Part shown: positions 1-61,962 of the stretch, piece after piece
How positions within the stretch are numbered: position 1 is the first letter of the stretch
How the letters are laid out: the number at the start of each line of letters is the position of its first letter
NCBI GenBank assembly: GCA_951406725.2
Contig: OX597824.1
Span: 47,740,001 to 47,804,000, forward strand
DNA: 64,000 nt
Origin: Octopus vulgaris
Taxonomy: Eukaryota
Direction: 5' to 3'
The notes under the pieces: generated by a model
The model's database searches: none
The model's input: the letters and a program-made list of their open reading frames with translations, nothing else
What the model was told of the DNA's origin: nothing
Translations under genes and position numbers: made by a program

Positions 1-985
1 TCCCAAACCTCTGTAACATTGCCAGGTCAAGGACTTTTGGAAGTTATCCAGTGTCCACAACCCAAACGTACGAAAAAACAGGCTGTCAAGTTGAATATGC
101 CTGAGACCCTGAGTCTCTACTGTAGTACTGTCACCACTGGCATTATCTGAGCAATGGAATAGCAGGAGGGCTATGTGACACTCCGTATGCCATTCACTCA
201 ACCTAGATCTACGAAAGCACCAGGCTTCCCATCCACCAAAACTAGCAAATGAGGGATACGTTTGTTTCACCAGCAGAGACCACACCCGTTCACCATCCAG
301 AAGAATCCATAGATGTCTCAACCTCAGTGTGTGTTTGCGCATCAACAGCCAAGGCATCCCTAGTCTTCCCTTTAACAGTCTTTGACAGCAAATAGAGCGT
401 TTTACAACTGGCTTTGAGCCCTTCCACACAAAAATGAAAGAGCTGTCTTTCCAACTTGATCAACCATGAATCCAGCAAATAATAATGGTTAGACGGTAGG
501 CCAATGTGTTCATCACATTGGTCATTACAACCGATGCGAGGAACACATTGGCCACCTCTGCCCGCCCTTTCAGGGACAGCCACTGTCAAGACCAGGTTCT
601 GACTATGTGAGCCACTCTGCTCGTAACTTCAGCCCAGTTCTTCTCTACATGGAGGTCTTGACCAAACCAGAACCCTAGCAACTTAACCGGGCCCTCTGTC
701 AAAGTCCTACGACGCTGTCTGAAGGCATCGACTTGCCCCTCCAGGTACCAAGTTGCAAGCCGACCAATTTTTCCAGGTTAATCTTTGCTCCTGCCACCGT
801 CTCATAAACCTCAATGGCCTTGCCTACCTCCTGTAAGTGTTCCATTTTCGTCATCTGCATAAGCTGAAACCGACTTTCAACATCCTGGCACTCTTGGGAT
901 GTCACTCAACCTTTTGCAGTAACAGCTCAAGAGCCAAAACATACAAAAGCAATGAGAGTGGACACCCTTGGTGACCGAGTGTTTG
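1..985 (-). mobile_element. Degraded L1/Tx1-clade LINE ORF2 fragment (RT region and downstream)
   Basis: Minus strand near 900-975 reads QGCPLSLLLYVLALELLLQKVE (L1-type RT motif), then YETVAGAKINLEK...GLQLGTWRGK (ORF 699..905) and WLIKLERQLFHF (ORF 290..589). Frameshifted. Confidence 0.75.
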
Positions 986-3800
986 ATCCAGCGGATCATG
1001 CTAGCTCCATTTCTTTCAAGCCTACGCGTGTCCTCCGCAGTCATGGCCCATGTTTCACTACTGTGAAGCATGGCAGTTCGCACACATGCGTTGTACAATC
1101 TACCTTTCACTCTGAACGAGAGACCCTTTGTTGCCAGTAGAGGAAGAAGCTTTCTAAACTTCGTCCAGGCTATTTCTTATTCTAGTGGTAACACTCGCTG
1201 AGCATCCACCCCAACTAATAACTTGGTCACCTAGGTAGCGGAAGCTATCAACTACTTCTAGTTTTTTCCCCTGGAGTGTGATGGAATCTGTTTTCTGAGT
1301 ATCTGTGGTGTCTATTACCCCTGTGCGTCTGCCGTACAAGAATGCTATCTTCTCGCTTAATTTTTCTTTGATGTTGCTGCACTTCTTATGTGTCCATAGC
1401 TTACACTGGGTACATCTTATGGAGTTTCTACCTACACCTTTTCTACATATTGAGCTGGGCCACCTACCTGAAGGGGTGTGTGATGAGTTCACCTTCCTAC
1501 TTACTAGAACTTTGGTCTTTGCTACATTGACTCTAAGGCCTTTTGATTCTAAACCTAGCTTCCACACCCAAAATTTCTTTTCTAGTTCCGGTAGTGATTC
1601 TGCTATGAGGGCCAGGTCATCAGCATAGAGGAGCTACCAGGGGCAACCTGTCTTGAATTCCTCTGTTATTGTCTGGAGGACTATGATGAATAAAAGAGGA
1701 CTGAGGGCTGAACCTTGGTGGACCCCTATTTCTACCCGGAATTCTTCACTATACTCATTGCCAATCCTAACCTTACTAACGGCCTCTCTGTAAAGGGCCT
1801 CTACAGCCCTTGTTAACCATTCATCAATCTCCAGTTTCCGCATCACCCACCAGATAAGAGATCGGGGGACCCTGTGAAAGGCTTTCTTCAAGTTCACAAA
1901 AGCTTAGTATAGGGGTTTATCTTTAGCTAGGTATTTCTTCTGCAGTTGTTGAACCAGGAATATGGCATCAGTGGTGCTTCTACCCGGCACAAAACCAAAA
2001 TGCATTTCATCTAAGCAGACACTCTCCCTAATGAGATGGGCTATGACCCTCTCTGTGACTTTCATCACCCGATCCAGCAGTTTGATACCCCTGTAGTTAT
2101 TTCTATCTAGCACATCACCTTTACCCTTGTAGCAGTTGACTATGGTGCTGCTACGCCAGTCGTTGGGTATGACTCCATCATGAGTACCTGGTTTACAATG
2201 CGGGTGACTAGGCCATAGCCCACACCACCAGATGTTTTAAGCATCTCAGCAGTGATTCCTGATGGGCCGGGGGCTTTTCCTGGCTTCATACCCCTTAATT
2301 GCTTTATCTACTTGGGAGCTGTCTATTTGGATAGCTGGTCCCTCTACTGGGTCAACACTTGGCAGGCTCTCCTCCTCCCATTCATTCTCCACATTTAGTA
2401 GTCTTTCAAAATAGCTTCTCCAAGCCTCTTTCTTTTCAGAATCATTAAAATCAAGTGCACCATCATTCATGCACATTTCTCTCCTGTGACATCACAATTT
2501 TCTCTCACACAGTCTTGCAATCCGAAATACCTCAGTTCTTTGGCCCTCACGTTGCTGGACATTGGCAAGCTTCTTCTTTTCCACCTCGCTCTTGGCTGTG
2601 TATACCTTCTGCCCAGCCTCCTTTTTGGCTACCTGGTACAGTTTCCTACAACTCCCATTCTTCCGGGCTTTCCAGGCCTGTTTCTTTGCTCTAATGGTCC
2701 TGTCTACCATACTATTCCACCACCATGTAACTCTAGGTCTGGAAGGGACTTTGCACCATCCGCAGACTTAGTCTGTAGCACTCAGCAAGCTGTCCTGTAG
2801 GAATTTCCAGCTACCTTCTATGTCCAATGTTTGTAGCTCCTCCTCCCTCTCCTCAAATTTTTTGATGAAGATATCCCTAAATCTTTGACCATGTGAAGGG
2901 TTCTTTATGTTCCAAATCCTTCTTTTTTGGATTGGTCTGCTTCTTGGTATCCTTCTGGTCTTGAGCCCAAAGTCACTAACGACCAGCCTTTGCTGGGGAG
3001 TACATTCTTCACCCGGAAGGGTCTTTGTATTTAAGAGTAACCCTGCGTCCTGTTGTCTGGTGAGTATGAAATCAATTTGGCTAGCAGAGTCCCCTGATTG
3101 ATAGGTTATAAGATGGCTGTCTGGCTTCCTGAAGTTAGTGTTGCAGATTAAAAGGTTTCACGCATCACAAAACTCCAGTAGCCTGGTTCCCTCATCGTTT
3201 CAGGTGCCAATACCATGGCCACCGTGTACCCCAGTGAAGACACCAGATTCCTGCCCAACATGCCCATTAAAGTCTCCAACCACAAAGATGAGGTCATTGC
3301 CACTCGTCTTTGAGGTAGCCTGTAGAAGGGTATCATAAAAGTGGTCCTTCTGATCATTTTGTGGTCCTGCATGTGGGGCGTAGGCAGAGATAATTGTAGC
3401 TGTGCTGTTCTGCAGGACTAGCCTGAGCTTAAGCACTCTATCGCATACCCTAACAACCTCTATGACCTTATCCACCCATTTCTCTGTGAGGAGTATGCCT
3501 ACATCCCTTACACCATCCATGTTGCCTTGCCAGAAGACTTTATACCTATGTACCTTGCCTGTGAGGACCCTAGCTGAAGCTCCTCTCCATCTTACCTCTT
3601 GTATGCAGCATACATCAACCCGTCTCCTTTCAAGTATTTCTGCAATCTCACTAGACCTACCTTTCAGTGTGCCAACATTGACAGTGCCAAGTCTGAAAAC
3701 TGGGAAGGGAATGTAGGGTTAGGTTTGGGGAGGAGGGATGTTATTCAGTGTCTGAAAAGAAGAGGGTTGTTGTGGTGTTCGTTTTTTAGGCATGCTTCTT
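986..3800 (-). mobile_element. RTE-clade LINE, near full-length ORF (APE endonuclease + RT + PHD-like finger), frameshifted, 3' end missing
   Basis: Endonuclease motifs TVNVGTL, IQEVRW, ISAYAP, VGDFNGHVG, QIDFIL. RT motifs NYRGIKLL, HFGFVPGRSTTDAIF, VHQGSALSPLLF, YADD, FRYLG. The 5' boundary is approximate. Confidence 0.9.
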
Positions 3801-24810: not shown

Positions 24811-24853
24811 TATATATGTTAGTGTGTTAACTAAAATTTTCTGATTCAACTGA

Positions 24854-25054
<201 letters not shown>

Positions 25055-26383: not shown

Positions 26384-27812
26384 TCATCGTTTAACGTCCG
26401 CTTTCCATGCTGGCATGGGTTGGTCGGTTTGACTGAGAACTGGCAAGTCAGGAGGCTGCACCAGTCTCCAATCTGATCTGGCAAGGTTTCTACAGCTGGA
26501 TGCTCTTCTCAGCGCCCACCACTCCAAGAGGTTGGCGTTAGGAATAGTGGATGCTTTTTATGTGCCACTGGCACTGGCATCAGCCACGCTCAAATAGTGC
26601 TTTTACATGCCACCGGCATGGGTGCCAGTCAGGTGGCACTTGACTCAACAGGTCTTCTCAAGCACAGCATATTGCCCGACCATTGAAGGGTACTTTTAAA
26701 CAGGCCGGTTATGCGACACTGGCCACGGCTACAATCTCACTTGGTTTGCCAAGTCTTTTCACGCACAGCATATCTCCAAAGGTGCTTTATCACCTCATCT
26801 CATGTCTTACTGGGTCTACCTCTTCCACAGGTTCCCTCCGGTGTCACAACACTTCTTCACAGCTGTCCTCATCCATACACAATATATGACAATACCAGCA
26901 CAGTCGTCTCTCTTGCGCACCAAATCTGATGCTTCTTATGTCTAACTTTTCTCTCAGGGCGTGTACACGCTGTAGTGTATGCACACTGGCATTACACATC
27001 CAGCTTCATTTTTTTCAAGCCTATGCATATCCTCAGCAGTTACAGTCCATGTTTCACTACTGCTTAGCATGGCTGTTTGCACACATGCATCATACAGCCT
27101 ACCTTTCACTCTGAGTGAGAGGCCTTTGTTACCAGCAGAGGTAGGAGCTATCTGAACTTTGACCAGGCTATTCTTATTCTAACAGCTACATTCTCAGAGC
27201 ATCCACCCCCGCTACCGACTTGGTCACCTAGGTAATGGAAGCTATGAACTACTTCTAGTTTTTCCCCTGGCATGTGATAGAATCTGTTTTCTATACATCT
27301 TTGATGTTTATTGCACCTGTACATCTGCCACACACAAAAACTATCTTCCCAGTTAACCTTACTTTGATATTGCTGCGCCTCTTATGTGTCCATAGCTTAC
27401 ACTAGGTGCATATTATATAGTTTCTACCTACACCTTTTCTACAGATTGAGCAGAGCCATCTACCTGATGGGGTTTGTGATTTGTCTGCTTTCCTACTTAT
27501 TAAGACTTTGGTTTTTGCAACATTGACTCTAAGGCCCTTCGATTCTAGATGTTGCTTCCACACCTGAAACTTCTTTAGTTCTGGTAGTGACTCAGCTATT
27601 AGAGCAAGGTCATCAGTATAGAGGAGCTCCCAGGGGCATCCTGTCTTGAATTCTTCTGTTATTGCCTGGAATACTATGATGAATAAGAGGAGGTCGAGGA
27701 CTGATCCTTGGTGAACCCCTCCTTCTACTTGGAATTCTTCACTGTACTTGTTACCAAACCTCACCTTACTGATAGCATCCCTGTACATGGTTTGTACAGC
27801 TCTCACCAATCA
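26384..27812 (-). mobile_element. 5'-truncated, internally deleted RTE LINE
   Basis: VHQGSVLDLLLF...ELLYTDDL...WLCSICRKGVGRN, FHYLGDQV. 3' tail at 26384. Confidence 0.88.
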
Positions 27813-28871: not shown

Positions 28872-29333
<462 letters not shown>

Positions 29334-29356
29334 TGAGCATACTATTTGAGCATACT

Positions 29357-29926: not shown

Positions 29927-32722
29927 TATCATCATCATCATCATCATCATTTAACGTCCGCTTTCCATGCTAGCATGGGTTGGACGGTTCGACTGGGGTC
30001 TGGGGAGCCCGAAGGCTGCACCAGGCCAGTCAGATCTGGCAGTGTTTCTACAGCTGGATGCCCTTCCTAACGCCAACCACTCCGAGAGTGTAGTGGGTGA
30101 TTTTATGTGCCACCGACACAGGTGCCAGACGAGGCTGGCGAACGGCCATGCTCAGATGGTGTTTTTTATGTGCCACCGACACAGGTGCCAGACGAGGCTG
30201 GCGAACGGCCACGCTCGGATGGTGTTTTTATGTGCCACCGACCCAGGTGCCAGACGAGGCTGGCGAACGGCCACGCTCGGATGGTGTTTTTATGTGCCAC
30301 CGACCCAGATGCCAGACAAGGCTAGCAGACGACCACGCTCGGATGGTGTTTTTTATGTGCCACCGACACAGGAGCCAGATGAGGCTGGCGATCGGCCACG
30401 ATCGGATGGTGATTGTTACGTGCCCACAGCATGGAGGCCAGTCGGTGCGGAACTGGCTACGGCCACGTTTGGATGGTACCACAAAGATACAAATTCCATT
30501 GATGTTCATCTATTTTGATTTTGTTTGATTTTTTGATTTGATTTGATTTGATTTTCACTTGCCTCAACAGGTCTTCACAAGTGTCACAAGAAGGAAGGTA
30601 TGCACAGGTGGACTTACTACGTCCCAGGTAGGGGCCACGGGTTATGGCCTGACTAGTCTTGCCGGGTCTTCTCATGCACAGCATACTTCCATAGGTCTCA
30701 GTCTCTAGTCATTTCCTTGGTGAGACCTAAAGTTCGAAGGTCGTGCTTCACCACTTCGTCCCAGGTTTTCCTGGGTCTACCTCTTCCACAGGTTCCCTCA
30801 ACTGCTAGGGTGTAGCACTTTTGCACACAACTATCTTCAGCCATTCTCGTCATATGACCATACCAGCGCAGCCGTCTCTCTTGCACACCACAACTGACGC
30901 TTCTTAGGTTCAACTTTTCTCTCAAGGTACTTACACTCTGACGATTATGAACACTGACATTACACATCCATCGGAGCATACTGGCTTCATTTCTTGCGAG
31001 CTTACACATATCCTCAGCAGTCACGGCCCATGTTTCACTACCATGTAGCATGGCTGTACGTACACATGCATCATACAGTCTGCCTTTTACTCTGAGCGAG
31101 AGGCCTTTTGTCACCAGCAGGGGTAAGAGCTCTCTAAACTTTGCCCAGGCTATTCTTACTCTAGCAGTTACACTTTCAGCACACCCACACCCACTACTGA
31201 CTTGGTCTCCTAGGTAGCGGAAGCTATCAACTACTTCTAGTTTGTCTCCCTGGAACGTGGTAGAAGTTGGTCTCTGCACGTTTCCAGAGTTTGTTTCTCC
31301 TGAGCATCTGCCACATACGAAAACTATCTTCCCAGCCTACCTTTGACATTGCTGCACCTCTTATGTGTCCATAGCTTACACTTGGTGCACCTTATAGAGT
31401 TTCTACCTACACCTTTTTTACAGATCGAGCAGGGCCATCTACCTGAAGTCGTTTGTGGTTGGTCCACCTTCCTACTAATTAGGACTTTGGTTTTGGCTAG
31501 GTTGATTCTAAGGCCCTTCGATTCTAATCCTTGTTTCCACACCTGAAACTTCTCCTCCAGTTCTGATAGTGACTCAGCAATTAGAGCAAGGTCATCAGCA
31601 TAGAGGAGCTCCCAGGGGCATCCTGTCTTGAATTCTTCCATTATTGCCTGGAGGACTATGATAAATAGGAGGGGGCTGAGGACTGAACCTTGGTGGACCC
31701 CAACCTCTACCCGGAATTCTTCACTGTACTCGTTGCCTACCCTCACCTTACTAGCAGCGTCTCTGTACATGGCACGCACAGCTCTCACTAACCATTCATC
31801 TATCCCTAGTTTCCTCATTGACCACCAGATAAGGGATCGGGGGACCCTGTCAAAGGCTTTCTCCAAGTCAACAAAAAGCCAGGTACAAGGGCTTACCTTT
31901 GGCTAGGTATTTCTCCTGCAGCTGTCTTACCAGGAATATAGCATCAGTAGTACTTTTCCCTGGCACGAACCCAAACTGCATATCATCTAAGCTTACTCTC
32001 TCTCTAATTAATTGGGCTATAACCCTCTCCGTAACCTTCATTACCTGATCCAACAGCTTGATGCCCCTGTAGTTATTTGTATCTAGGGCATCACCTTTAC
32101 CTTTGTAGCAGTTGACTATTATGCTGCTACACCAGTCATTGGGTATGACTCCTTCGTGTATCACCTGGTTAACTATACGGGTGACTATGCTATAGCCGAC
32201 ACTACCAGATATTTTGAGCATCTCTGCAGTAATTCCTGATGGGCCTGGGGCTTTCCCTGTCTTCATGCTTCTAATTGCCTTAGCTACCACGGAACTATCA
32301 ACTCGGATAGCTGGTCCCTCTGTTGGGTCAACATTCGGCAGACTCTCTTTATCCCATTCATTTTCCTCATTCAGCAACCTTTCATAGTGGCGTCTCCAAG
32401 CCTCTCTCTTTGCATCCTCATTTAGCGCAAGTGAACCGTCATCCTTGCGAACACATTTCTCTCCTACCACATCACGATTCTCTCTCACACACTGTCTTGC
32501 AACACGAAATGCCTCAAGTCTTTCATCCTCACGGCGCAGGACATTGGCAAATTTTCTCTTATCTGCTTCCCCTCTGGCTAGATAGACCTGTCTCCTAGCT
32601 TCCCTTCTGGCAGTCTGATACACTTCCCTGCTACCCTCGTTCTTCCAAGCCTTCCAAGCCTGTTTCTTTTGTCTAATAGCCCAGTCAACAATATTGTTCC
32701 ACCACCACGTTATTTTGGGTCT
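29927..32722 (-). mobile_element. Young 5'-truncated RTE LINE (RT + PHD-like finger + 3' UTR minisatellite + (GAT)n tail) in SLC35E3 intron 3
   Basis: ORFs 31868..32737, 31324..31866 and 30698..31279 are contiguous with two frameshifts; ELLYADD is intact. Confidence 0.95.
30100..30478. repeat. About 61-bp GC-rich tandem repeat (about 6 units) in the RTE 3' UTR
   Basis: TTTTATGTGCCACCGACACAGGTGCCAGACGAGGCTGGCGAACGGCCACGCTCGGATGGTG repeated head-to-tail. Confidence 0.9.
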
Positions 32723-33661
32723 TATGCACATACACACACATATATATCATTGTCATCATTTTAACGTCCACTTTTTCCATATTTTCAGGTTCAGACAGAA
32801 GTCATTGAGGTAGATTTTCTTTCAGATGCTTAGAAGACTTGCTAGAAGTGGTTGACAACATCTGCTACCTTAATGACCTAATAGTTAGGAGCTGAGTGTT
32901 GGGACAGTGTAGGAACTAGGATAATGGCATAGTGAAAAAAGTTGAGGGAGCTGTTATTTTCTGTTGGCAACAAAAGAATCCTCTCTAGAAGTGAATAGCA
33001 GATTGTATGATGTTTTATACAAAGGCTGGGAAAAAACAAGTTATGTTCTACTAGAAGAATTGGCTGTTGTGTGCAAGAGAGATAACTGCACTGATATAGA
33101 CACATGCACATGAGGGATGGCTGCAGAATTGCTGAGTAAACCAAGTAGAAAGAACTTGAGAGAGGAACAAATGTTGAAAGCTAACTTTAGATGTTGAATT
33201 TCACAAAGGCGTAAGGTACCTTGCTAGAGAAGACTGATCCAGTCCATGCAAGCATGGAAAAAAGAGGTGAAATGATAAGGATTGAGTGCTGTGTCTACTA
33301 TCTTTTATAACTAGAGCTTTCCATTAGCAAAGCATTGTACCTTTTAAGCAAAACCTGAAGCTGTTTCCTTATTCTACAAAAGAATAAATAGCAGTAAAAT
33401 AGCAGTTTTAAGTAGAAACTGAGATGCAGTTATAATCAGACAAAGATTAAAGATTGCAATGACAGGGATTCATTGCTTATGTAAATGGATTTTACCATAC
33501 TGGCTAAGACACCATTAATTGTTTTTGTAATATTGTGATATATAGGAAACAAATAATTGTTAGAACTTATATTTCTTTAAAATGTTATACAATTGTTATC
33601 ATGTGTGCACCCTTTGGTGATTAAATATATGCTTCTTTATAGATTACCATAATCTCAGTAG

Positions 33662-35378
<1,717 letters not shown>

Positions 35379-44695: not shown

Positions 44696-47238
44696 CTAGC
44701 AGCATAGCCCGGGTATGTAAGGAACTTTGTCGATAGGCAATGCCCTTTACCTTTTTACCCTTTTTTTGTACTCATTGAATCGTTATTTTGTAAAATGAAG
44801 CCTAAAAGGCATTAAGGCACCATTCCCTTGCATGCATGAAGAAAATCTATGACAGTCAAAGTGCATTTTCTGGTTTTGTTTAGCACACCCAACCCAGTTC
44901 TGCGAGATCAGTGTCACGACGGGAACGCATGGGTTGGGAGTTTGACAGGCAGAGGTGATATGGTTGCACATGCCGGCCCTTTTGACCCCCCCCCCAACCC
45001 AAGTTAGGTTCGGACCACAGCTAAGCCCTACCTAATCCTAACTTAAGTCTAGCGAAAGGGGGCTCGGGAGCCTCCAGTAGGCAACGACTAATCCCTCTAG
45101 GGAACGAAGGCGCATGTGTAGGTTGCAATGTCTTCTCTTCACTCCAATACTTCTGTGTATACAACGTTTCTAGCTGTCCCTTTGGGCGAAAACATGAAAA
45201 CATCATTGCGCCTCCCAACGCGTGAACAGCCCACGTAGAGTTGACCATGGGCGAAGCACTGTTCGCCCAAATGTAACCCAGCGACTTGTAGCATTTGGCC
45301 TTGGGATTTATTGATGGACATTGTGAAGCAGAGTTTAACAGGAAACTGAGAACGCCTGAAATGGATTGGTAGGTCAGCGCCCGACGGTTGAAGGTGCATG
45401 ACATCATCTCCCTTCCCACAACCGGTAAGTATTGTGGCCGTTATTAAATGTGGTGCCAAATGTTTCACAACCAGATGTGTGCCGTTGCACTGTTTAGGTG
45501 GAACCAAATTCCTGATGAGCATAATAGGCGCGCAGACTTTTAACTTCAGGATGTGTGGCGGTTCAAGTGAATTCAGGAATTCAACGGGATAATCGGCAAG
45601 CTTGGCAGGGTCTGCTGTATATATATATGTGTGTGTATGCAAAACGTATATACGCAGATACATACGTTCATATTATAAAATACATGTAAGTGGCAACATA
45701 TAGTAAATAAACACAAAATAATAGATATACACACACAGATGACATATAAGATCCATACCCAGATATGCACACATGGTTGTAGACATGTAGTACACCAAGA
45801 AGTTCTATATATGCATACATGTTTGCATATATCGGCAGTAAAATATATTTAATTATCAGATTTGTAGACGTGGACATCACCAGGAATAGCTTCAAGTAGC
45901 TGGATATTGATGGAGCTGACGGTTGTATTTTTGGGTGTGAGAATAGCTCTGCTTGCCAGCCATTTTAGGTCGCGTAAATTGTTTTGTAGGTTGTGGAAGA
46001 CAGCGTCCCGGAAGCTAGCAGGGGTGTCGACAGTGGTGCAAAGCGAGTCCAATTGAACGCAGCCGGCATCCTATTTTCACCGAGTGATAAAAGGTCTCTG
46101 GAGAATGCAGCGGATCTGCTGTCACCAATCAACTGCGTGTGAATGTTAGTTTGGAGGTGCAAGGGCCGCACATGTGCCCAAAGAGCTAACGACTTAAGGC
46201 ACGCATGCACGGGTTCCTTTAGGAATAACAGGTAGAGTCTGCCTGAAGTCTCCTGAAAGAAGTAAAGTCAATCCTCCCATGGGGGCCGTAGAGTCTCTGA
46301 TGTCTTGCAGGGACCAGTCCAGTGCCTCAAGGGCGCCTTTGTGTGCCATAGTGCACTCGTCCCATGTTCTGAGTTCTTGGCGATGTTGCAGATAGGTGAC
46401 TCGGACTTTGCCAGATCGAGCGGGAGTCTGAAGGCAGAGTGGGCAGTTCTGCAACCCAGAAGCAATGTGGCCGCAATACCAGAGGAAACTACAGCCAGGG
46501 CAATGTCCGTGTTGCATCTGACCTCCGCCAGAATTAGTTTCGTGACGAAGGTTTTGCCAGTGCCGCCAGGTGCGTCATGGAAGTAAATCCCCCTACGTTG
46601 CTGGTCGTTAGTTTGACATTTAATGCAAACTTGATGTCCAACATCGGTGTAGGGAAAATTCATGTGAACTTTCAAAAAATATATCAGAAAAATCGGTTTG
46701 CTATGTGTGCCACATATGATGTAATTAACCGATTTTTTCTAGTAATAACGTATCCTATTGGAATCAAAAGGGACATGATGCTCACTGTGAATTTCAAAAA
46801 AATTCCTGCCAATTTGTTAAAGATATTGTCGAAAATATGTCATCTTGAATTTGAATGCGATTTCCCAAAATGACATGATTTTATCGATTTTTTTCTGATG
46901 GTAAGGTATTGCATGGAAAACTAACAACAGAATTAAGTTCCTTAGGGTAACACTAAGCTTCACCATGAGTTTGGTGAAAATTGATTGCAAGTTGCGAAAA
47001 CTACAACAGAAAATGTGTTGCATATGAAAAGCTTAGATTCTCGATCCCATGTCGAATTTATCGATTTTTTTCAGAACTGGGGGAACTTTTCAAAATTTTC
47101 ACTGCGTTAGTTTTGAATTATGACATTGGGCTATGTGTGTGTCAAGTTTCATCAGAATCGGTTGAAAGCCATGGTCAGGGTGAGGGTACAACCTGACAGA
47201 TACACAGACAGACAAACTGTCTTTTATATATAGAAAGA
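44696..47238 (-). mobile_element. Internally deleted Helitron with PIF1-family helicase remnant and both termini
   Basis: DAPGGTGKTF (Walker A), [80 protein letters not shown]. Minus-strand ends A|TC (47238) ... CTAG|T (44696). Confidence 0.9.
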
Positions 47239-48002: not shown

Positions 48003-48326
48003 TTATTTCTGTGATTCCTCAACCAGATCTTTTACTTCACATGGGTTATTTTCATCTTGTCCTATATGACCAGCACTTTTCAGTTGCTCATACAACAACG
48101 TTTTCTGTTTTACCTGATATGTTATTGTTCTGTCCAAATAGTAAGTACTTTTAAGTTGAATATTTTGAATAATATCACTAAGAAGGTGAGCTGCATGAAC
48201 AGTTTTCCCAGGACAGTCCAGTTTGATGTTGTTTATATGCACATGGAAATGAGGATAAGATGGTTTGTAATGACAGTACATATATAGTTTATATGCTGGC
48301 ACACCATATTTCTTTTCAATGATTAT
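48003..48326 (-). CDS. DCPS: m7GpppX diphosphatase (scavenger decapping enzyme), exon 4 (last)
   Basis: CAG|IIIEKKYGVPAYKLYMYCHYKPSYPHFHVH...AHLLSDIIQNI...YYLDRTITY; HIT triad HFHVH. Confidence 0.94.
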   Translation of the reverse strand: MIIEKKYGVPAYKLYMYCHYKPSYPHFHVHINNIKLDCPGKTVHAAHLLSDIIQNIQLKSTYYLDRTITYQVKQKTLLYEQLKSAGHIGQDENNPCEVKDLVEESQK

Positions 48327-50754
48327 CTGGAAGAAAAAAACAGAAAAAATAAGCACAAGTATAGCTGTGTAAAAAATTTTGCTTGAAAATACATGGTTTG
48401 GGGTTCAGTCCCCAGTGTGGCATCTTGGGCAAATGACTTTTATTATAGCCCCAGGCCAATCAATGCTTTGTGAGTAAATTTGGTAGAGGGGAAACTGTGT
48501 GGAAGCCCACTGTGTGTGTGTGTGTGTAATCGTCCAACCCATGTTGGCATGGAAAGTGGATATTAGACGATGATGATGATATATACAAGTGTAAAAAATG
48601 GAATTTAGATTTGTCCTTTAATTTGGAGGTTGCCAAAAAAGATTTCTAATATTGATTCTTCATATTTTGCTGGTAGTTTACAGGCGTAAATTTGCGAATC
48701 TGAAAATAATACTTGTATATGGTGTGTTGTGAATTTATGGAAAGAAATCCCATAAACTCAACAATTTAGTTAACAATGGAGAAGAGAAGGTGTTAAAATA
48801 TATAAGAGAATTTTAATTCATGGAGATGATCATTTCGTACAGAGATATAAAAATAATGCAAATTCATGGTTGAACTGAATTAAATAACATCGCCTTACTG
48901 GCACCTGTGCTGGTGGCATGTGTAAAAGGATTCGAGCAAGGTCGTTGCCAGTACTGCCTGACTGGCCCCCGTGCTGGTGGCACGTAGAAAGCACCCACTA
49001 CACTCTCGGAGTGGTTGGCGTTAAGAAGGGCATCCAGCTGTAGAAACTCTGCCAAATCAAGATTAGAGCCTGGTGCAGCCATCTGGTTCGCCAGCCCTCA
49101 GTCAAAATCATCCAACCCATGCTAGCATAGAAAGTGGACGTTAAACGAACATTAATTACATATCAATGTACTCTTCAGTGCAAGAAGTATAAACAAAATT
49201 TTGACAATGAACTTGAGAAAGGAAATAGCAGAGAAGAATTTAGGGGAGTCATTTTTATCCTTATGAGAAAAAGAGATACAAGTCTAGTTTTGTATTAACT
49301 ATAACTAAAGGCTATAACGGTTATTTGATAATATAAGTAAAAAGAAGTTACAGAGACGTTCCCTTTATAGATGAGTTAGGATATTAGAAATTTGACCTTC
49401 AAATAAGTTGCAGAGGGCAAAAAATTGTATAGAAATATCCAATGGAAAGGCATGGCTATATTTGAATTAAGATATGACCTGAAAGTTAAAAACATTACTT
49501 AGTGTGGTGTATATTTAAAAAAAAAAATCATACATGAGAATGAAGTTAATATTGAGGAGATAGTGTATAAAGAGCTACTAGATAGTTAATGTAAAAAAGT
49601 GTTAGAGAGGTAAAAAGGGTTAAAGAAAGAATAAGATGCGTAAGATGGACTTACGTTTGCATAAGAACTAATATTCGTTAGTATGTATTAAATATAAGGT
49701 AGAAAAATAAGTAAAAAAAAAAAAAAGAAAAGAAAAAATAGCTGTTAATATTACAATTTAGATAGTAAATACTTGATGTGACTATAAAGATGAAAAAAGT
49801 AAAGTTGAACTAGATAATGGGTGCTGGAGTACGGAAAAGTAAAACAATGTAGGGGAGATAAATGAGCTGGGAATGAAAATAAAGGGTTTATTTTATATGT
49901 ATTGATATGTAAGGTTATACAGTAACTATGTTTTAGTATAAATAAAAATGATGAGGTAAGAAACTAACCTGGCATAATGTGAGAGGGATATTTAATGTTA
50001 TTATGGTAGTATTAATATTCAAGTAATAGAAGAGTATTGCGTATTATGAATATAAGAAAAGGTATGAGTATAGGAGTGCACATAAGTATACAAAAAATTT
50101 ATACATAACGTCAGAAAAAAAAAAATCTTATAAGGAAATAAGTGTTTAGTATATTTACTCATACGTGAGTAGAGGCATATTTGCACATTAGTATACATAG
50201 ATATATGATTTCTAGTTGTTTTTTGATTAGGGTATACACAAAAGAAACACCATACAAAACTACATACTCATACCGGTGCAAAAAGAGAAAGGCGCACACA
50301 TATAAAAAAAAAAGTATATATATATATGTGTGTGTGTGTATGCAAAACGTATATACGCAGATACATACGTTCATATTATAAAATACATGTAAGTGGCAAC
50401 ATATAGTAAATAAACACAAAATAATAGATATACACACACAGATGACATATAAGATCCATACCCAGATATGCACACATGGTTGTAGACATGTAGTACACCA
50501 AGAAGTTCTATATATGCATACATGTTTGCATATATCAGCAGTAAAATATATTTAATTATCAGATATAGTGACAAGTAACATAAACCAGAATGGGTATGTT
50601 GAGGGAGTTTAATGGACACATAAAGCAAATAAAATAAAATAATTATAGGTATATACTAAAGAAAGATATAATTTTTTAAAAAACCCCAGACACATTGAAA
50701 GAAAAGGAGGTGTAGGGAGAGATAAAGTGTTAGCCCAATGTCAGTGTGCACACG

Positions 50755-51272
50755 CATTGGAGTGTAAGCACCCTGAGAGAAATGTTGGACATAAGAAGCA
50801 TCAAATGTGGTGTGCAAGAGAGACGACCGGTAAGTAAAGTGAGATCACAGCAGTAACCTATACCAGTGTCGCATAACCAGGCCATTTAAAAAGTATCTTT
50901 GAATTGTCAGGTGACACACTGTGCTTGAGGAGACCTATTGAGTCAAGTAAAATCAAAAATGACACATCAAGTCACAATCAAAAATGGAAATTGTAGCTGT
51001 GGCCAATGCCAGCACTGCCTGACTGGCTCATATGCTGGTCGCACACAATAAGTACCATTCATGCACGTGTCATTGCCAGACTGGCTCCCATGCTGGTGGC
51101 ATGTGAAAAGCACCCACTACACACTCGAAGTGGTTGGCATTAGGAAGGCATCCAGCTGTAGAAACATTGTTCAGATTAGATTGGAGTCTGATGCAGCCTC
51201 TTGGACTTGCCAGCCCCCAGTAAAACCGTCCAACCCATGCCAGCATAGAAAACGGACGCTAAACGATGATAA
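50755..51272 (+). mobile_element. Deleted RTE 3' fragment
   Basis: LREMLDIRSIKCGVQERR remnant joined to the 3' UTR and a GACGCTAAACGATGAT tail. Confidence 0.8.
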
Positions 51273-51283
51273 TATATATATAT

Positions 51284-53893
51284 ATCATCATCATAATCGT
51301 TTAACGTCCGTTCTCCATGCTAGCATGGGTTGGACGGTTCGACTGGGGATCTGGGAAGTCAGAAGGCTGCACCAGGCTCCAGTCTTATCTGGCAGTGTTT
51401 CTACAGCTGGATGCCCTTCCTAACGCCTGCCAATGTTCTGAGCCGTGAGGATGAAAGACTTGAGGTATTTCGTGTTGCAAGACAGTGTGTGAGAGAGAAT
51501 CGTGATGTGGTAGGAGAGAAATGTGTCCGCATGGATGATGGTTCACTTGCGCTAAATGAGGATGCAAAGAGAGAGGTTTGGAGATGCCACTATGAAAGGT
51601 TGCTGAATAAAGAAAATGAATGGGATAAAGAGAGTCTGCCGAAAGTCAACCCAACAGAGGGACCAGCCATCCGAGTTGACAATTCTTTGGTAGTTAAAGC
51701 AATTAGAAGCATGAAGACAGGGAAAGCCCCAGGCCCATCAGGAATTACTGCATAGATGCTCAAAATATCTGGCAGTGTTGGCTATAACCTAGTCACCAGT
51801 ATAGTCAACCAGGTGATACACGAAGGAGTCATACCCAATGACTGGTGTAGCAGCATACTAGTCAACTGCTACAAAGGTAAAGGTGATGCCCTAGATACAA
51901 ATAATTACAGAGGTATCAAGCTGTTGGATCAGGTGATGAAGGTTACGGAGAGGGTCATAGCCCAACTAATTAGAGAGAGTTAGTTTAGATGAGATGCAGT
52001 TTGGGTTCGTGCCAGGGAAAAGTACCACTGATGCTATATTCCTGGTAAGGCAACTGCAGGAGAAATACCTAGCCAAAGATAAGCCCCTGTACCTGGCTTT
52101 CATTGACAGGGTCCCCCAATCCCTTATCTGGTGGTCAATGAGGAAACTAGGGATAGATGAATGGCTGGTGAGGGCTGTGCAAGCCATGTACAGAGATGCC
52201 GTAAGTAAGGTTAGGGTTGGCAACATGTACACAGAAGAATTCAAAGTAGAGGTTGGGGTCCACCAGGGTTCAGTACTCAGCCCCCTCCTATTTATCATAG
52301 TCCTCCAGGCAATTACGGAGGAATTCAAGACATGTTGCCTCTGGGAGCTCCTCTATGCTGACGACCTTGCTCTAATTGCTGAGTCACTATAAGAACTGGA
52401 GGAGAAGTTCCAGGTGTGGAAGGAGGGTTTAGAATCGAGGGGCCTTAGAGTCAACCTAGCTAAAACCAAAGTACTAATAAGTAGGAAGGTAGACAATCCA
52501 CAAATGTCTTCAGGAAGATGGCCCTGCTCGATCTGTAGAAAAGGTGTAGGTAGAAACTCTATAAGATGTACCCAGTGTAAGCTATGGACACATAAGAGGT
52601 GCAGCAATGTCAAAGGTAGGCTAACTGGGAAGATAGTTTTTGTATGTGGCAGATGCTCGGGAGCATTAACCTCTGAAAATCTGCAGAAAACAACTTCCGT
52701 CACTTTCCAGGGGGAAAAACTAGAAGTAGTTGATAGCTTCCGTTACCTAGGTGACCAAGTCAGTAGTGGGGGTGGGTGCGTTGAAAGTGTAACTGCTAGA
52801 ATAAGAATAGCCTGGGCAAAGTTTAGGGAGCTCTTACCTCTGCTGGTGACTAAAGGCCTCTCGCTCAGAGTAAAAGGCGGACTGTATGATGCATGTGGAC
52901 GAACAGCCACGCTACATGGCAGTGAAACATGGGCCGTGACTGCTGAGGACATGCGTAAGCTCACGAGGAATGAAGCAAGTATGCTCCGATGGATGTGTAA
53001 TGTCAGTGTACATACTCGACAGAGCGTTAGTACCTTGAGAGAAATGTTGTACCTAAGAAGCATCAGTTGTGGTGTGCAAGAAAGACGATTGCGCTGGTAT
53101 GGTCATGTGGCGAGAATGGATGAAGATAGGTGTGTGAAAAAGTGCCAATCCCTAGCAGTTGAGGGAACCCGTGGAAGAGGTAGACCCAGGAAAACCTGGG
53201 ACGAGGTGGTAAAGCACGACCTTCGAACTTTAGGCCTCACTGAGGAAATGACCAGCGACCGAGACCTTTGGAAATATGCTGTACCTGAGAAGACCAGGAC
53301 AAGTGAGCCCAGCCCACTTATGCATGCCTTTCCTCCCTTGGACATAAAGACCTGTTGAGGCAAGCGAAGTCAATATCGAACCTCATCCGACGACAGGCAC
53401 CCATGCCAACCCCCTTTGCTTGCGAAGACATGTTGGGGCAAGTGAAATCGAAATTGAAATTGATATTGAACCAATCCTATGACTGGCACCCGGCAGATGC
53501 CAGGACCCCTGGACTGGTGGTACGTAAAAAGCACTATCCGAATCATGGCCGATGCCAGCGCCACCTAGACTGGCTTCCGTGCCGGTGGCGTGTAAAAAGC
53601 ACCATCCAAATAGCGGCCGAAGCCAGTGCCGCCTCGACTGGCTTCCGTGCTGGTGGCACGTAAAATGCACCAATCCGACCGTGGCCGCTGCCAGCCTCGC
53701 CTGGCACCTGTGCGGGTGACACGTAAAAAGCACCCACTACACTCATGGAGTGGTTGGCGTTAGGAAGGGCATCCAGCTGTAGAAACATTGCCAGATAAGA
53801 CTGGAGTCTGGTGCAGCCTTCTGGCTTCCCAGATCCCCGGTCGAACCGCCCAACCCATGCTAGCATGGAGAACGGACGTTAAACGATGATGAT
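51284..53893 (+). mobile_element. Young 5'-truncated RTE LINE in DCPS intron 3, with an inverted RTE 3'-end fragment fused to its 5' end
   Basis: ORF pieces across 51428-53358 (NYRGIKLL, QFGFVPG, HQGSVLSP, YADD, PHD-like finger, FRYLG). Tail GACGTTAAACGATGATGATG at 53875-53893. 51284-51427 is a minus-strand tail copy. Confidence 0.93.
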
Positions 53894-54772
53894 GTGTGTG
53901 TGTGTGTGTTTTTGTCCCCCACCACTACCTGATAATAGGTGTTGGTTTGTTTATGACCCATAACTTATTGGTTTCACAAAGGTGACCAATAGAATAAGTA
54001 CAAGATTTAATATAAGTGCTGAGTCAAAGGTAATGATGATGGTTTACATAGCAACAAGCAACAAGTTTGTCAAGGAGTAGTAAACTACATCAATTCTACT
54101 GCAAACTGGTGTTCATTTCTATTTACCTTGATATGACTTGAACTTGAAATACACAAGTTCAACATTGCTATATGGACAATGCTGTTCAGAGCACTAACAT
54201 TTCTGTTGGTTCAATAATAATTCATATTTGATGTAATTAAGCACCCAAAGAGGGTATTGAACAAATTTTGTTACATCAGTTAAATTTTATTACATTTTAT
54301 ATATTTATTTTTATTTATAATCATTTAATACATCCAAATATTGATGAAGCCCACAGAAGGCCAACTCAGTTGGAATAAATCAGCTTATTAACTAGTTTGG
54401 TTACAGAAAAATGAACCAACCAAATTGGTACACTGTTAAGAAATAACCAACAGAATGTTTGAAGATGGCAAAACATGAATCAAATTAAATATTATGAAAT
54501 ACAACTTGTGGTACATTCATGTTAGCCATTTAAGTGTTAAGATGTATGTGTGAATTTAGTGGCTGCCCGACTACCACAATGTAAATTATTCGGTTTCAAC
54601 AGATAATAGCAGATTGATAACAGATATGGAAGGGGTACAACTCCATAATAATATAAAATGTCAGGCATACTGTAATATTTCCAAACAGCTGAATTATTAT
54701 TATTATTAATTATCACTTATTAATTAATCTTGTAATGACAAATAAGAAAAGAGAAAGAAAGGGACAACTTAC

Positions 54773-54997
54773 AGGACATTCAGTGAGAATAGACTTGAGC
54801 ATTGGTAAATGTGACTGGTTGAGATCACGAATTGATTTAATGTTACGTTTATGGACAATGGCTACAAAGTACAGGGAATCAATATCAGTGCCATTCCATT
54901 TAAGATCAGGCAATAAAATGAATCCCTTTTCAGGATCTGGGTCTTCATATAAAATTCTCTCCTTTTCAGATTTCTTATTCAATATGTTATATACCCA
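54773..54997 (-). CDS. DCPS: DCPS exon 3
   Basis: CAG|WVYNILNKKSEKERILYEDPDPEKGFILLPDLKW...SIRDLNQSHLPMLKSILTECP|GTAAGT; 225 nt. Confidence 0.94.
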
Positions 54998-55896
54998 CTG
55001 AAAAGAAAACCAAAAGATAGATAGATAGAATGTATGTATGTATGCATGCATGCATGTTAAAATTTACTACATTTTATATATTTATTTTTATTTATAATCA
55101 TTTAATATATGCATGCATGTATATAGGCGATTCTGTTATTTTAAAAATTAGTTACATTGGATAGTAACAGAATTAATAATATCTTTGCAAATCAACTTTT
55201 TGTGAATTATTTTTCTCGTGAATTGTTTGCTCCTGTATCGAGATATATGTGTGTGTGTCATATACATATTTCATTGTTTGATAAGTGCCACACATGAAAT
55301 TCTTTTGCTCTTGAATCCCTTTGTAACTTTTGCCAATTAAAAATAGCCAATAATTATTATATATTATTAACATCATTTAACGTCCATGTTCCTTGCTGGT
55401 AGGGGTTGAATGGTTTTTATAGGATCTGAAAGGTCCCAGGACAGCATTGTGGTCTACTGTCTACTTTAGTATGGTTCCTATGGCTGGATGCCCTTCCTAA
55501 TGCCAACCACCTTACAGCATGTACAGGGTACTTTGTGTGTCACCAGCTCTAGTGAGGTTGCCACTACCTTCCCTGCTTATTACATCACCTAGGTAATAAA
55601 AAGCTATCAACTACTTCTAGTGAGCTATCTGGACATTTAAGAGAATCTATTTCTGATTGCTCATAATACATATTGCTCAAGTGCATGTCACAAAGCTTAC
55701 TTTCTCTATTAGATTGCCTGTGATTCCACTACACTTCTTATGTACCCATAGCTTACATTGATTACAACATATGGAGTTTATACTCCTTTCCTGTATATTG
55801 AGCAAAGTTATTTCCCTGAAGACACCAGGGTCCCATCTTTTTTCCTACATACAAAAACCTTACTTAGTCTTTGCTAAGTTTGTGCGTGTGTATGTA

Positions 55897-55961
<65 letters not shown>

Positions 55962-55962
55962 C

Positions 55963-56243
55963 ACCGTGACCGACCAGGCTATCAGATGTTGCTACACATC
56001 ACTGGTCACAATGCACTTCTCATTGTTTTAGCCTTCACATGATGCCACCCCCGCTGGCTAAGCAAGCAAGCCTACAGGAAAAAGAGTGAAAGTTGTGACG
56101 AAAGAGTACAGCAGGGATCCCCACCCCCACCCTGCCGGAGCCTCATGGAGCTTTAGGTGTTTTCACTCAATAAACACAATGCCCAGTCTGGGAATCAAAA
56201 CCGCGAATGTGCTGCCCTAACCACTGGGTCATTGCACCTCCAC
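55963..56243 (-). mobile_element. tRNA-derived SINE, third family
   Basis: Reverse complement begins GGAGGTGCAATGACCCAGTGGTTAGGGCAGC...GGTTTTGATTCCCAG; flanked by (TA)n. Confidence 0.65.
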
Positions 56244-56429
56244 ATATATATACATATATCATCATTGTTTAACGTCCATCTTCCATGCATGCATGGGTAG
56301 GACAGTTCACAGGAACTGGCCAAGTACAAAAACTACCCTATGCTACTGTCTGCTTTGGCAGGGTTTTTATGCCTGGATGCCCTTCCTAACACTAACTACT
56401 CTGCAGAGTGGACTATAAATATATATCAT

Positions 56430-57010
56430 TCATAGTACACTGCTGATAACAATGTACTTCCAATTTTGTCGTGACTGCACCATTGTTTTCTATCTTGACC
56501 CAAATTGCTTGACTAAATTGTCTTCCCATATCATGGTGGCCCTTTCCAATCTCTTGGATACTACTTGGCACCTTGCATGGATCCACCTGTTGTCTGTGAA
56601 TCTTGCAACATGTCTGGCCCAAACGGAACTTGTGCTTTCAGTACTCTGTGATCACATTGTTCACGGCTCCATTCTCAAATCTCATTTCGAATGTGTTCTC
56701 TTTGTGATGTTCCTAGCATGGATCTTTCCATAGCCCTTTGTGTTGTAACCAATCGATGTTCAATCCTTTTTGTAGTAGTGCACAGCTTATTTGCATATGA
56801 GGGCACAGGTAGAATGGTGCTACTGAAGAGTCTGGCACATATGGCATTGTCTAGCTTTGTTCCAAGCACATCCTTTATTGATTTAAATGCCATCCATTCT
56901 GCTCTTATTGTCTTTGAGATTCCAGCATCCATATCTCGGCACATATTCATTGTGTGCACTACCTCCTCGATTTCATCACTTCTCACTTCTATTCAGCCTT
57001 GTGTTAAAGG
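56430..57010 (-). mobile_element. Old RTE-type LINE C-terminal fragment
   Basis: ARLFSSTILPV...LVTTQRAMERSMLG...EHIRNE, then WARHVARFTDNRW. Confidence 0.75.
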
Positions 57011-57696
57011 TAACAACATGGCTTTCAGCAAAATTCTTAAAAGAAAGGGATCTTTTAGTGGGTGACATATAAGTGTTGGATTTGGTTCTACAGTAGGAGG
57101 AAGAGAGTGAAGTGGATGGAAGTGTTTGTTTATAACTGTTTCCATACTCCTTAAGATGGTAGAAATGAGAGAAATTGGTCAGAAATGGTTGGGTCAGAGA
57201 GCTTAATCTAAGGAGTGATGAGAGACATTTGAGAGAGTGAGAGACAGGATAAGACTGAGTTTTGCAAAGATATCAGCTAGATTTCAAGGACATGGAATAT
57301 AATGGAAGGGATATTGCCAAGTTTTTGAAGTCAGTGTCACATGTGAACATGATGGTGAGACTGATATCACTTTTATTTCATTACACACACAACAACTATA
57401 TTGTCTGTGTGAGTGTGTTTATAGACTTTATTAGCATGACTCTTCTGAATTATAACAATATTGGTCTTAATACAGTTTTGGATGAAAATTTTTCCAAAAT
57501 AAATTTAAAATAGCAACATCATAAAATAATTCTTTGTAAATTAAAGAGCTGGTTTTTTTCATTTCTATTTCATATAAAATGTTCTAAGTTTTCAGTATTT
57601 TTTTACACTTTTTCTTTATGAGCTGGAAGCTATTCCATGGCCAAAACACTGCAAATTAATTCCTTGGAGAAAAAAAAAGAAAGATAAAATACATAC

Positions 57697-57842
57697 GTCT
57701 ATACAAAGGGCTTCCTTTTCTAAGGCTGGCAAAGCAATTTTCTGATATATCTCTGGTGTTTCATGAACAACAAAACACTCTTGCTGAGTATATTTGGTAA
57801 TGTGCAAGTCTGTGGCGGGATTAATAAATGTTGCTTTTACAT
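57697..57842 (-). CDS. DCPS: DCPS exon 2
   Basis: CAG|(D)VKATFINPATDLHITKYTQQECFVVHETPEIYQKIALPALEKEALCID|GTATGT; 146 nt, phase 1/0. Confidence 0.92.
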
Positions 57843-60584
57843 CTGCAAAGAAAAAAAAAAACTTATGTAAACAAACAGCTGAAAATAACAAGTCTCTATG
57901 TGGTCTCTCAGACTCCTGAAAACAGCAACCAGAATCATACCTTATACAAAAAATACAGGATGGTAACAGTCAAAACACCTTTGATTCTAGGTCTGATTGA
58001 TCAGGATTGGCCAACAACTGTAACCATTTTTCTTTAACCCTTTAGCATTCAAACCAACCATATCCACCCCAAATAGTCTACCAGTTTTATGTTCAAACCA
58101 ACCAGATCCAGCCTCTCACCCCAACCCTACAGGGTTGTTCTAAAAATAAACAATCACTGAACATACTGGTGAAGTAAATCTAATGGTGTGAAGAATCAAC
58201 ACAGCATACAAGTGGAACACAACACAATATGCAGTTGTCATGGTAACAAGCTGTTGCTTGGTTAAAATTACCCAAATTTCCCAACTTTAATTCCAAATAA
58301 CATTAGATTCTTTAATTTATAAGATAAAGTAATTAGTTGATCATAATCAAAATTCAGAGTTGCATTGATAGACCAAAATTGAAAGCAATCTGAGCAAAAT
58401 TAAAGGGGGTTAATTTTGTGAATGAAAAAGACTAGATCCATGCTAAGTCATATTCGCTTTGTGAGTTTAAATGTGCAGGGACGAATCATGATGTTGTCGA
58501 CTTTAGATGTAGTAAGAGCTAGTAGTGGCAATGTTGGCAGTGATGAATTTCATTGTCCTAATGCAGAGAAAGTGAGCAATTAGCTACCTGGAGGCATATG
58601 CAAACTAAACTTCTTAAGTTGAGCAAAATTGATCTATTTAAGGAAATTACTGGGCTCCATTGCGATAGTAAAAAGTAGTTAACCATTTAATAGTTTTAGT
58701 AAATTTATACAGAAAAAGTATTATACCGTCCAGCATAAATAAAAGTCAACTTCATTATATCTGTAAAAACCTATTCTGACATTAAATGAGTCAACTTCCC
58801 ATACGAATGTTTATAATTTGTATGTCATTTTTCAACAAAAAAGATTTCTAAACAAAATCTGGAAATAATTCACTCATGTAACTTACACACCCACTAAAGT
58901 TTATTTTTGTTTGTGAAAAAAGTGCATAAATTACATGGGTTTTTAAGGTAATCTTAAATTTTGGCCTAACAACTACCTGGACAATTTTGTATAAGTAATG
59001 AACCTATTTATTACCTTATGACATTTTCAATGACACACCTGATATTTTGCATACATTGGTGTAGTTCCCTGGAAAAGGGCTCATAAAGTTGGGAAATTGC
59101 AAAAATATGCTCATATGTCATCCACATAGTAAAACTATCTAATTGTTTTTGTTTTCCTCAAAGCCATTAAAGCAGTTGATGTTATTTCTGGAAGACACCT
59201 GTGCTTGCCTTTCTATCATACTTTAGCCTTTCAATAACTGGCATAAAGATACCGCCCCTTCTCAAATACTCTCCACCCACTTAGCTATACACTAGTGGAG
59301 ACAAGAATATATTTATCAATGGTTTATTACTTTACATACATCAGGGCTTAAGTCGCCAATTATTTATGTTTAGTCTGTTTAGTTAATTCAGATTCATTTA
59401 ACGCTCACTGCTAACATTATTTTGTCTCCCTTCTCTCTTTGCAAGTCCACTTCGCTGCAGACCAACTCCCCAGCTAGCCCGCAGCGAAATTCCTGTCTAC
59501 AGTTCATCTGTTATGAATCCTGCCCTAAATAGCTCCCCACACAGAACTGTTGACTGTCATTGGAACTGGGAAGGCGTTTTAATTGTCCTGCCCATGCATG
59601 TGGTTACTCGGTTCTTTGGTGGCTGTTTCTTGTCAAGGGTTGGTGTGATCTGCCTAGGGCAGTCCCTGTTGGGTGGTTGGGCTACCTGAACAGGGCTGTC
59701 AATATTGAGATGGTCTAGTTTCATAGTTGCTCTGGTGTGTTGATGGACCTTGCTGATGCCATGTAAAAAGTACCCAGTACACACTGTAATGCAGTTGGCT
59801 TTAGGAAGGACATCCACCCTTAAAAACCACACCAAAGCTGACACTAGAACTTGATGTCGCCCTGTGCATAGAAAACAGACGTTAAATGTAGATAATGATA
59901 CTGATTCAGTGAAAATTGCTGAAGAATCCAAAAGTACCGTTTGCCTATCCATCGGTTTATGTTTAGACAATCAGGTCTCCTGTCTAATGTAGGACTTCAT
60001 GAATATTCCCCCCCCCCCCCAAGCCAGTCTCATCACGAGAACACAAATTACTTTCCTTCATAAGTCCAACACATTATGCTCCTGCAGCAACTGTGTCTCA
60101 GTTGGCATCTTCGCCATGTCTCGTAACAATGTTAATCCCAGAACGTTTTTTGAACAATTCGGGTCCAACTTCGCTAGTTTTAAATTCCATTTATTCTCCA
60201 AGCTGTTCGTAAACAGAATTAGCTCTTTTGCAAATAAATGATCCAGTCACCCACCTGCTAAATAAACGGTGTGTATAACATTTACAAGACGGTGGATTGG
60301 TGACACGGTGTTTGATCTAATCTAGTCTCCAATTGACGAACAACCCTGGACAATCGGAGCTAATTCGAAATATATTAGATATAGAAATCGAGAAAATAGG
60401 CATCAGTGTTATTAAGCCTGTTATTGTCGCACTTTTTAGCTAATACTTTTCCCCTCAAAATGATCAAACACGTCGGAGAAAATTTCGTAACATGAGTTTT
60501 AAAATAATTTTGGTAAATTTTTATCTAAGGAAATCATTCGTTGCCACACTTTTATTCATTAACAAATTAATAGAAAAGCATTCG

Positions 60585-61485: not shown

Positions 61486-61962
61486 CAAAGGAGTCACAGT
61501 GTGAAGAGAGAAAGAGAAATTTGCCGCCGTAAAAAAAAAAAAAAAACAATAAATAAGCATCTAATAAAATTTTCAGAAAATATTATGACATAACCTTGTA
61601 AAAAATACCCAAAAGAAAAGAAATGTTGACTTTTTACAAAATAACGGTCAATAAAGTAGTGACATTCAACGAGCGGGAAAAACGAAATTATTGAAGGTTT
61701 ACTTTTGTATGCAGGAATGAAATTAAGAAAATTCCAAATATCAACTATGCTATTGCATTTTCAGGGGGTATCCTCGCTTTTACGGTCTTAAATTCAAATT
61801 GGTCTTTTAATACAGTCCTATATATGTCTATTTCGTTGTTGCACCTATTTTTTCATATTTATGCAAAAATAAAATCATGAAAATGACGGCGAATAATATA
61901 TCGAGAAAATATCAAACTGGTTACGTTATATCTATTTAAAATAAATGAATGGTATGTTTTAC

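Follow-up and report, generated by a model that had tools for sequence, protein, structure and literature searches.

A family of RTE retrotransposons in Octopus vulgaris was found to carry a PHD-type zinc finger (C4HC3) inside its reverse transcriptase (RT), as an insertion of approximately 65 residues between RT motifs 6 and 7. The finger is under purifying selection and is constrained like the RT core. The copy on which the analysis centered, referred to here as the focal copy, lies in a stretch of 64,000 nucleotides (the window). Translation of positions 52519-52656 on the plus strand reads W-P-C-x2-C-x10-C-x2-C-x4-H-x2-C-x14-C-x2-C, flanked by GLRVNLAKTK and LEVVDSFRYLG, in exact agreement with the C4HC3 motif that an earlier note on this DNA had described between NLAKTKVL and LEVVDSFRYLG. 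The same note had placed the finger at the end of the RT domain, whereas it actually resides inside RT. The focal copy and the other finger-covering copies are laid out as follows:

51429..53894, plus strand: focal RTE copy, ending in (GAT)n; 94% identical to an intact copy
52441..52470, plus strand: RT motif 6 (GLRVNLAKTK), immediately ahead of the insertion and aligned with R2Bm 655-664
52480..52509, plus strand: variable linker 1, where R2Bm has its 6a loop (residues 672-677)
52525..52656, plus strand: PHD finger (C4HC3), first to last Cys, with a conserved aromatic-Pro ahead of it from 52519
52657..52704, plus strand: variable linker 2, dN/dS 0.76
52738..52752, plus strand: RT motif 7 (FRYLG), downstream of the insertion
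985..3760, minus strand: copy of an older subfamily, with endonuclease and RT and with a decayed finger that has lost 3/8 ligands
26740..27809, minus strand: decayed copy whose finger has an internal stop and one lost ligand
30656..32725, minus strand: copy 90% identical to the focal copy, with a frameshift within the finger
55563..55864, minus strand: fifth fragment, highly diverged, covering the finger

The focal copy is dead, being 5'-truncated and interrupted ahead of the finger by two stops and one frameshift; it lies antisense in an intron of DcpS, between two DcpS exons. The finger is also covered by four other copies in the window. The earlier report of the same module in other copies held insofar as these copies exist, on the minus strand, but every one of them is decayed in the finger through lost ligands, a stop or a frameshift. 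A looser version of the finger motif found 0 matches in 60 mononucleotide-shuffled windows; together with the 23,064 first-look candidates obtained genome-wide, this ruled out chance or an accident of one copy.

Several other elements were observed in the window. The 3' UTR of the family (53300-53894; 29925-30424) includes internal tandem repeats whose copy number varies. Short elements sharing this 3' UTR and the GAT tail are located at 6682-6844, 25356-25613, 28063-28355, 34371-34469, 48940-49148, 50999-51427 and 56258-56401, and are likely 5'-truncated copies or partner SINEs; two such 3'-UTR-sharing elements meet tail-to-tail at 51253-51310. The host genes are DcpS (48003-62284, minus strand, four exons with Pfam matches) and a nucleotide-sugar/TPT-family transporter (19600-29336, plus strand, with a weak Pfam match on the first exon). 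PIF1 helicase fragments at 45139-46738 (minus strand) are probably a decayed Helitron, and a mariner-type transposase fragment occupies 6216-6614 (minus strand). A fragment at 24373-24858 (minus strand), without a Pfam match, presumably resembles a restriction-like LINE endonuclease, and a thumb fragment of a finger-less RTE is present at 56675-56992 (minus strand).

The 150 genome-wide candidates that were scored, from a search of 2.8 Gb, were 98-100% identical to the query. Sixteen loci were chosen for long open frames, and all 16 contained an uninterrupted frame of 1036-1162 codons; in contrast to the focal copy, intact frames of 1036-1043 aa are thus present elsewhere in the genome. The open reading frame (ORF) of approximately 1040 aa combines an APE endonuclease, RT and the PHD finger in a single frame. 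No C-terminal CCHC finger was detected in the family ORF, and the 1.8 kb upstream of one copy held no open frame over 88 aa. A (GAT)n 3' end was present in 53/74 loci examined. The 5' region of long copies consists of tandem monomers of ~160 bp in variable number (e.g. L041, L038 and L046; L031-L046), which recall monomeric LINE promoters. Rfam analysis of three long copies returned only microsatellite-driven miRNA matches, far under the cut-off. An older subfamily in the same genome, at 79% DNA identity, also carries the finger, which bears out the earlier proposal that the module is common to diverged subfamilies. A second finger-bearing RTE family is distant and decayed, and has a variant finger loop and the same GAT tail. 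Four RTE-type families and one CR1/L2-like family in the same genome are finger-less and have a short linker at the insertion site; the clade labels of the four RTE-type families, and that of the finger-bearing lineage, are our assumption.

Assignment of the module to the PHD class, as first suggested from the cysteine and histidine spacing, was upheld by both profile and fold comparisons. The Pfam PHD profile (PF00628) scored 27.3 bits on a 60-aa piece against a gathering cut-off of 24; scores were 21.3-22.7 bits in longer sequence contexts and 30.1 in the catfish homologue. Among the matches listed, all eight Cys/His ligands are kept in 98/134 finger-spanning clusters, and 78 of these 98 intact fingers have the ligand spacing 2,10,2,4,2,13-15,2. 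From this pattern the finger probably binds two zinc ions. A structural model of RT, finger and thumb had a mean pLDDT of 90, with 86-95 over the finger and 75-77 over the linkers, while the finger modelled alone had a mean of 75, with 85-88 in the core. The best fold match of the finger model was Drosophila Pygo, with Z 6.0 and an rmsd of 3.2 across 53 residues; seven other PHDs, including H3-binding ones, were tied with it within 1 Z, and all 8 chains at Z>=5 were PHDs. Foldseek found nothing for the finger model at E<=0.001, which is unsurprising for 64 aa. The larger model aligned from RT through wrist with R2 (Z 18.5) and L1 ORF2p (Z 18.4). The finger is thus predicted to adopt a cross-brace PHD fold that sits on RT between two flexible linkers. 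A C1, RING or FYVE fold was rejected, since Pfam C1 and RING fell under their cut-offs and the best fold matches were PHDs.

Selection on the finger was measured as dN/dS between the two subfamilies, using the majority codons of 45 and 29 loci. The value was 0.086 for the finger (48 codons), where retrieval of the loci with finger-containing queries may favour conserved fingers, compared with 0.083 for the RT core (252 codons), 0.055 for motif 7 plus thumb (121 codons) and 0.76 for linker 2 (12 codons); dS was saturated in linker 1. Similarly, the first half of the finger and RT motifs 5-6 had the same modal fraction (0.62 each, ligands excluded) across the 98 intact homologues among the matches listed. 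The GVGxNSI strand of the finger is unusually invariant.

We investigated how widely the finger occurs. A finger-containing query of 157 aa retrieved 959 clusters (50% identity) at E<=1e-10; among the matches listed (150 of the 959 clusters), 134 cover the finger, of which 98 retain all eight ligands. Since the query contained the finger, this set is biased. An unbiased search was therefore made with the RT core alone, for which 120 of 2200 matches were listed. Relatives at 59-69% identity among these had a full finger in 92/96 cases (91 by pattern and one on inspection), the other four comprising three with a broken finger and one without a finger. The listed matches at 45-46% identity came from the catfish Hemibagrus, and 23/24 of them were finger-less with a 26-residue linker, one being unparsed. 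We take these Hemibagrus elements to be Rex3/Expander-like and to be the nearest finger-less relatives. A word-based homologue search found only 2 proteins. The clusters yielded almost no organism names, so that the host range is only roughly delimited. Named hosts were few, namely O. bimaculoides (a protein 82% identical) and the catfish Neoarius graeffei, and the Atlas contains RVT_1+PHD clusters with a few mollusc records. Relatives in other animals exclude an octopus-specific novelty, and the suggestion of the earlier note that similar modules may already be in databases for other invertebrate RTEs was supported for the RTEs of other animals, as exemplified by N. graeffei and by Pfam-annotated RVT_1+PHD proteins. 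One finger-bearing RTE protein (P0452) is filed under the MAG of a lucinid clam symbiont and is most likely host-clam DNA in a bacterial bin. The N. graeffei model XP_060771234.1 (slc22a21) joins a transporter N-terminus to a near-complete finger-bearing RTE ORF, a fusion that may be an annotation artefact or an exonisation.

For a phylogeny scored for the insert, as the earlier note had advised, 280 rows that could be scored were reduced to 30 at 68% identity, 4 were added and the insert columns were removed. The 26 finger-bearing rows formed one side of one branch with support of 96/99 (LG+G4), sister to the catfish element, and a quick mixture-model tree of 30 rows also required one change, with support of 79. 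In the RT tree, which included no named reference elements, the family fell with RTE-type elements, from its own genome and from catfish, to the exclusion of a CR1/L2-like outgroup. Nesting of the catfish finger-less elements within one finger-bearing subclade was rejected at p-AU 0.024 (one placement, picked after seeing the tree). Since only 8 finger-less rows were sampled, a single gain is favoured and not proven by these trees, in which the finger appears to mark a large RTE lineage. We infer that the finger was gained once, long ago, from a Pygo-like PHD such as those of CR1/L2 ORF1 proteins.

Alignment with R2 indicated what the insertion site may face. Residues 655-669 of R2Bm align with motif 6 of the family and the strand that follows it. 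The R2Bm 6a loop (672-677) is located between motifs 6 and 7 and is reported to contact upstream target DNA; deletion of this loop, which its authors called unique to R2, inhibits nicking (PMC10499050). Motif 6a of vertebrate R2 likewise is described as wedging into upstream DNA (PMC12180492). By analogy the finger would face the same upstream DNA as the R2 6a loop, with its presumed closeness to DNA resting on R2, a member of a different superfamily. The match between the finger site and the target-DNA loop RT-6a of R2 was missing from the earlier note.

The sequence of the finger offers clues to its ligand. The cage of Pygo is described as Y341, V350, A356, I357 and W366 (PMC2726290). At the positions equivalent by alignment, the 98 intact fingers among the matches listed have an aromatic residue in 85, Val in 96, Ser in 91, Ile in 83 and Trp in 96, and all five hydrophobic pocket positions are jointly kept in 76/98 when Ser is counted for Ala. 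Among the same fingers, the position I Trp of K4me3 readers of the BPTF/ING/TAF3 type is present (96/98); the Met of position II occurs in 1/98, with Ser in 91/98; and an acid, as in the H3 contacts of K4me3 readers, follows the third Cys in 2/98. The pocket Trp is dispensable for the fold, given that none of the 8 whole host PHDs has it. A tentative reading of these features, and the main rival of our best reading, is that the finger is a putative Pygo-like reader of H3K4me1/2, or of another methyl-lysine, which would bias insertion to marked chromatin as the earlier note had proposed; the evidence for it is mixed. The Pygopus PHD is its best fold match (tied within 1 Z with other H3-binding PHDs) and shares its hydrophobic pocket residues and spacing, the Trp is kept although dispensable for the fold, and a targeting role has been proposed for the PHDs of LINE ORF1 proteins (PMC4120745). 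However, Pygopus has the EVND Asp, E360, longer loops and an acidic surface, whereas the octopus RTE finger is basic and lacks both acids, with any acid at the D352 and E360 equivalents in 5/98 fingers among the matches listed and Ser in place of the K4me3-reader Met. In Pygo, the H3-binding face is reported to be acidic and mutation of E360 to reduce binding to background (PMC2726290).

The basic character of the finger is pronounced. Its net charge has a median of +6 across the 98 intact fingers among the matches listed, and the focal copy has 11 K/R and no D/E. In comparison with host PHDs, of which 8/22 loci had a whole finger in one exon, net charge was +5.5 (n=94 fingers) versus -1 (8 host PHDs), with a p of 1.7e-4 that is overstated because the sequences are related. 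Lys or Arg is found at H+1 in 84/98, at H+2 in 86/98, at position 89 in 65/98 and at position 102 in 63/98 of the fingers among the matches listed. Our best reading, to which we give roughly even chances, is that the finger is a putative tether that, during target-primed reverse transcription, would keep target DNA or a nucleosome next to the nick. It would contact DNA mainly via the conserved Lys/Arg, the half-kept methyl-lysine pocket would provide a possible second contact, and the endonuclease and the 3'-tail sequence would continue to determine where the nick is made. We favour the tether because the insertion site matches R2 6a, the finger is basic and constrained, the Pygo acids are missing and the ORF is without a C-terminal CCHC. 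The CCHC module of L1 is reported to grip and unzip target DNA (PMC7617806), and DNA binding has been described for the PHD of BAZ1A, which has neither cage nor acids (PMC5636791), for the PHD of budding-yeast Hop1, on nucleosomal DNA (PMC12365614), and for the cross-brace finger of piggyBac (PMC5861402). Counting against a tether, a basic pair was reported to be insufficient for DNA binding in other PHDs (PMC5636791), and two of the 8 host PHDs also have charges of +4 and +6. Moreover, joint retention of the five pocket positions (76/98) and of the Trp (96/98) argues for a side-chain ligand. The tether and the H3K4me-reader readings are mutually compatible.

A basic surface, a single ORF and the absence of a CCHC would also suit a finger that binds the element's own RNA or aids RNP assembly, replacing the absent ORF1 and C-terminal zinc module. 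Related PHDs occur in CR1/L2 ORF1 proteins (PMC4120745), and many fragments in the window share the 3' UTR. Nevertheless, the corresponding site of R2 is turned to upstream DNA and finger-less single-ORF RTEs exist in the same genome, and we regard such a role as improbable. We likewise think it unlikely that the finger serves as a dock for a non-histone host protein, or packs on a domain of the ORF such as the endonuclease, without a direct nucleic-acid role. The invariance of the GVGxNSI strand would fit such docking, the PDB neighbours include PHDs bound to BCL9/Legless, VRK1, TET3 and ASXL2, and L1 ORF2p is reported to use PCNA and PABPC1 (PMC7617806); however, no candidate partner was found, and the finger is conserved in hosts that include at least cephalopods and fish, which is consistent with a universal ligand, for example DNA or histone.

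Insertion sites were analyzed at 74 loci, a few of which are probably duplicates. A readable 3' end was present in 53, and 17 of these then run into alternating purine-pyrimidine repeats, compared with a background of 1.7-2.6%. A finger-less RTE family, scored by eye, had (AT)n ends in 6/12 loci, so a causal role of the finger in microsatellite insertion was not supported. Sequence-level insertion signatures have been published for RTEs (PMC6007223). The insertion flanks of the octopus family look sequence-driven (AT microsatellites), as in the finger-less RTE; since finger-less RTEs transpose with similar microsatellite flanks, no insertion phenotype could be tied to the finger, which weighs against the tether. 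Target-site duplications were sought in 16 long copies and none was convincing. The CpG observed/expected ratio of 3' flanks was 0.56 (50 flanks), versus 0.95 and 1.06 at the two gene starts of the window and 0.39 for the window. These ratios, together with the intronic location of the focal copy, speak against an H3K4me reader in that they give no sign of promoter targeting, which selection against promoter insertions could mask.

Both ligands may also act together: a Pygopus-type reader in the polymerase palm, at the target-recognition site of R2, could use a histone mark and nucleosomal DNA to bias insertion, a proposal that we consider possible but doubtful. If it is true, LINE polymerases would have in the RT 6-7 loop a swappable socket for targeting that has been put to use repeatedly. 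The architecture of LINE ORF2 proteins is regarded as fixed, and target choice as the task of the endonuclease. A reader-type domain that is constrained like the catalytic core and sits at the target-DNA loop of R2 suggests that a LINE without site specificity engages its target at a second level. Since the family is young, with many intact copies that are 99% identical, this is directly testable. Tolerance of a folded domain by the 6-7 loop also bears on the engineering of LINE-based insertion tools.

No description of a PHD inside the RT of an RTE was found in the full-text literature, a coverage that stops short of Repbase Reports and most subscription journals, and passages of PMC12988792 and PMC11203168 contain no mention of a PHD. 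The RVT_1+PHD architecture is already present in Pfam-annotated databases. PHDs have been described in CR1/L2 elements, in ORF1 and at the N-termini of ORF2, with Pygo as top match, and in 2014 what the PHD fingers of LINEs do was described as unstudied (PMC4120745). These resemble the RTE finger in being LINE-borne with Pygopus fingers as top structural matches; however, they occur in ORF1 or at an N-terminus and are shuffled from one lineage to another, whereas the RTE finger is embedded in RT and inherited with it. The Chlamys Penelope-like elements also have a PHD finger inserted within a retroelement RT, but they belong to another class, comprise five Chlamydomonas families and hold the finger between RT2a and RT3 or in the endonuclease (PMC8557442). 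RTE-2_OV of Octopus vulgaris is likewise an octopus RTE with a zinc finger; it is set apart by its description as 1109 aa with a C2H2 finger (PMC9115989), in contrast to ~1040 aa with a C4HC3 finger in RT. With known RTE-clade LINEs the family shares APE and RVT_1 in one ORF of ~1040 aa, a (GAT)n tail and microsatellite-rich flanks, whereas known elements have ~26 residues between motifs 6 and 7 and the octopus family has ~90, with the PHD finger. Finally, R2Bm, R2Tg and PlaMe have their 6a insertion in the corresponding position, between RT motifs 6 and 7. In R2 a short, basic loop reads a specific motif upstream, whereas the octopus family has a whole 44-residue domain, with two putative zinc sites, in an APE-type element that is not site-specific.
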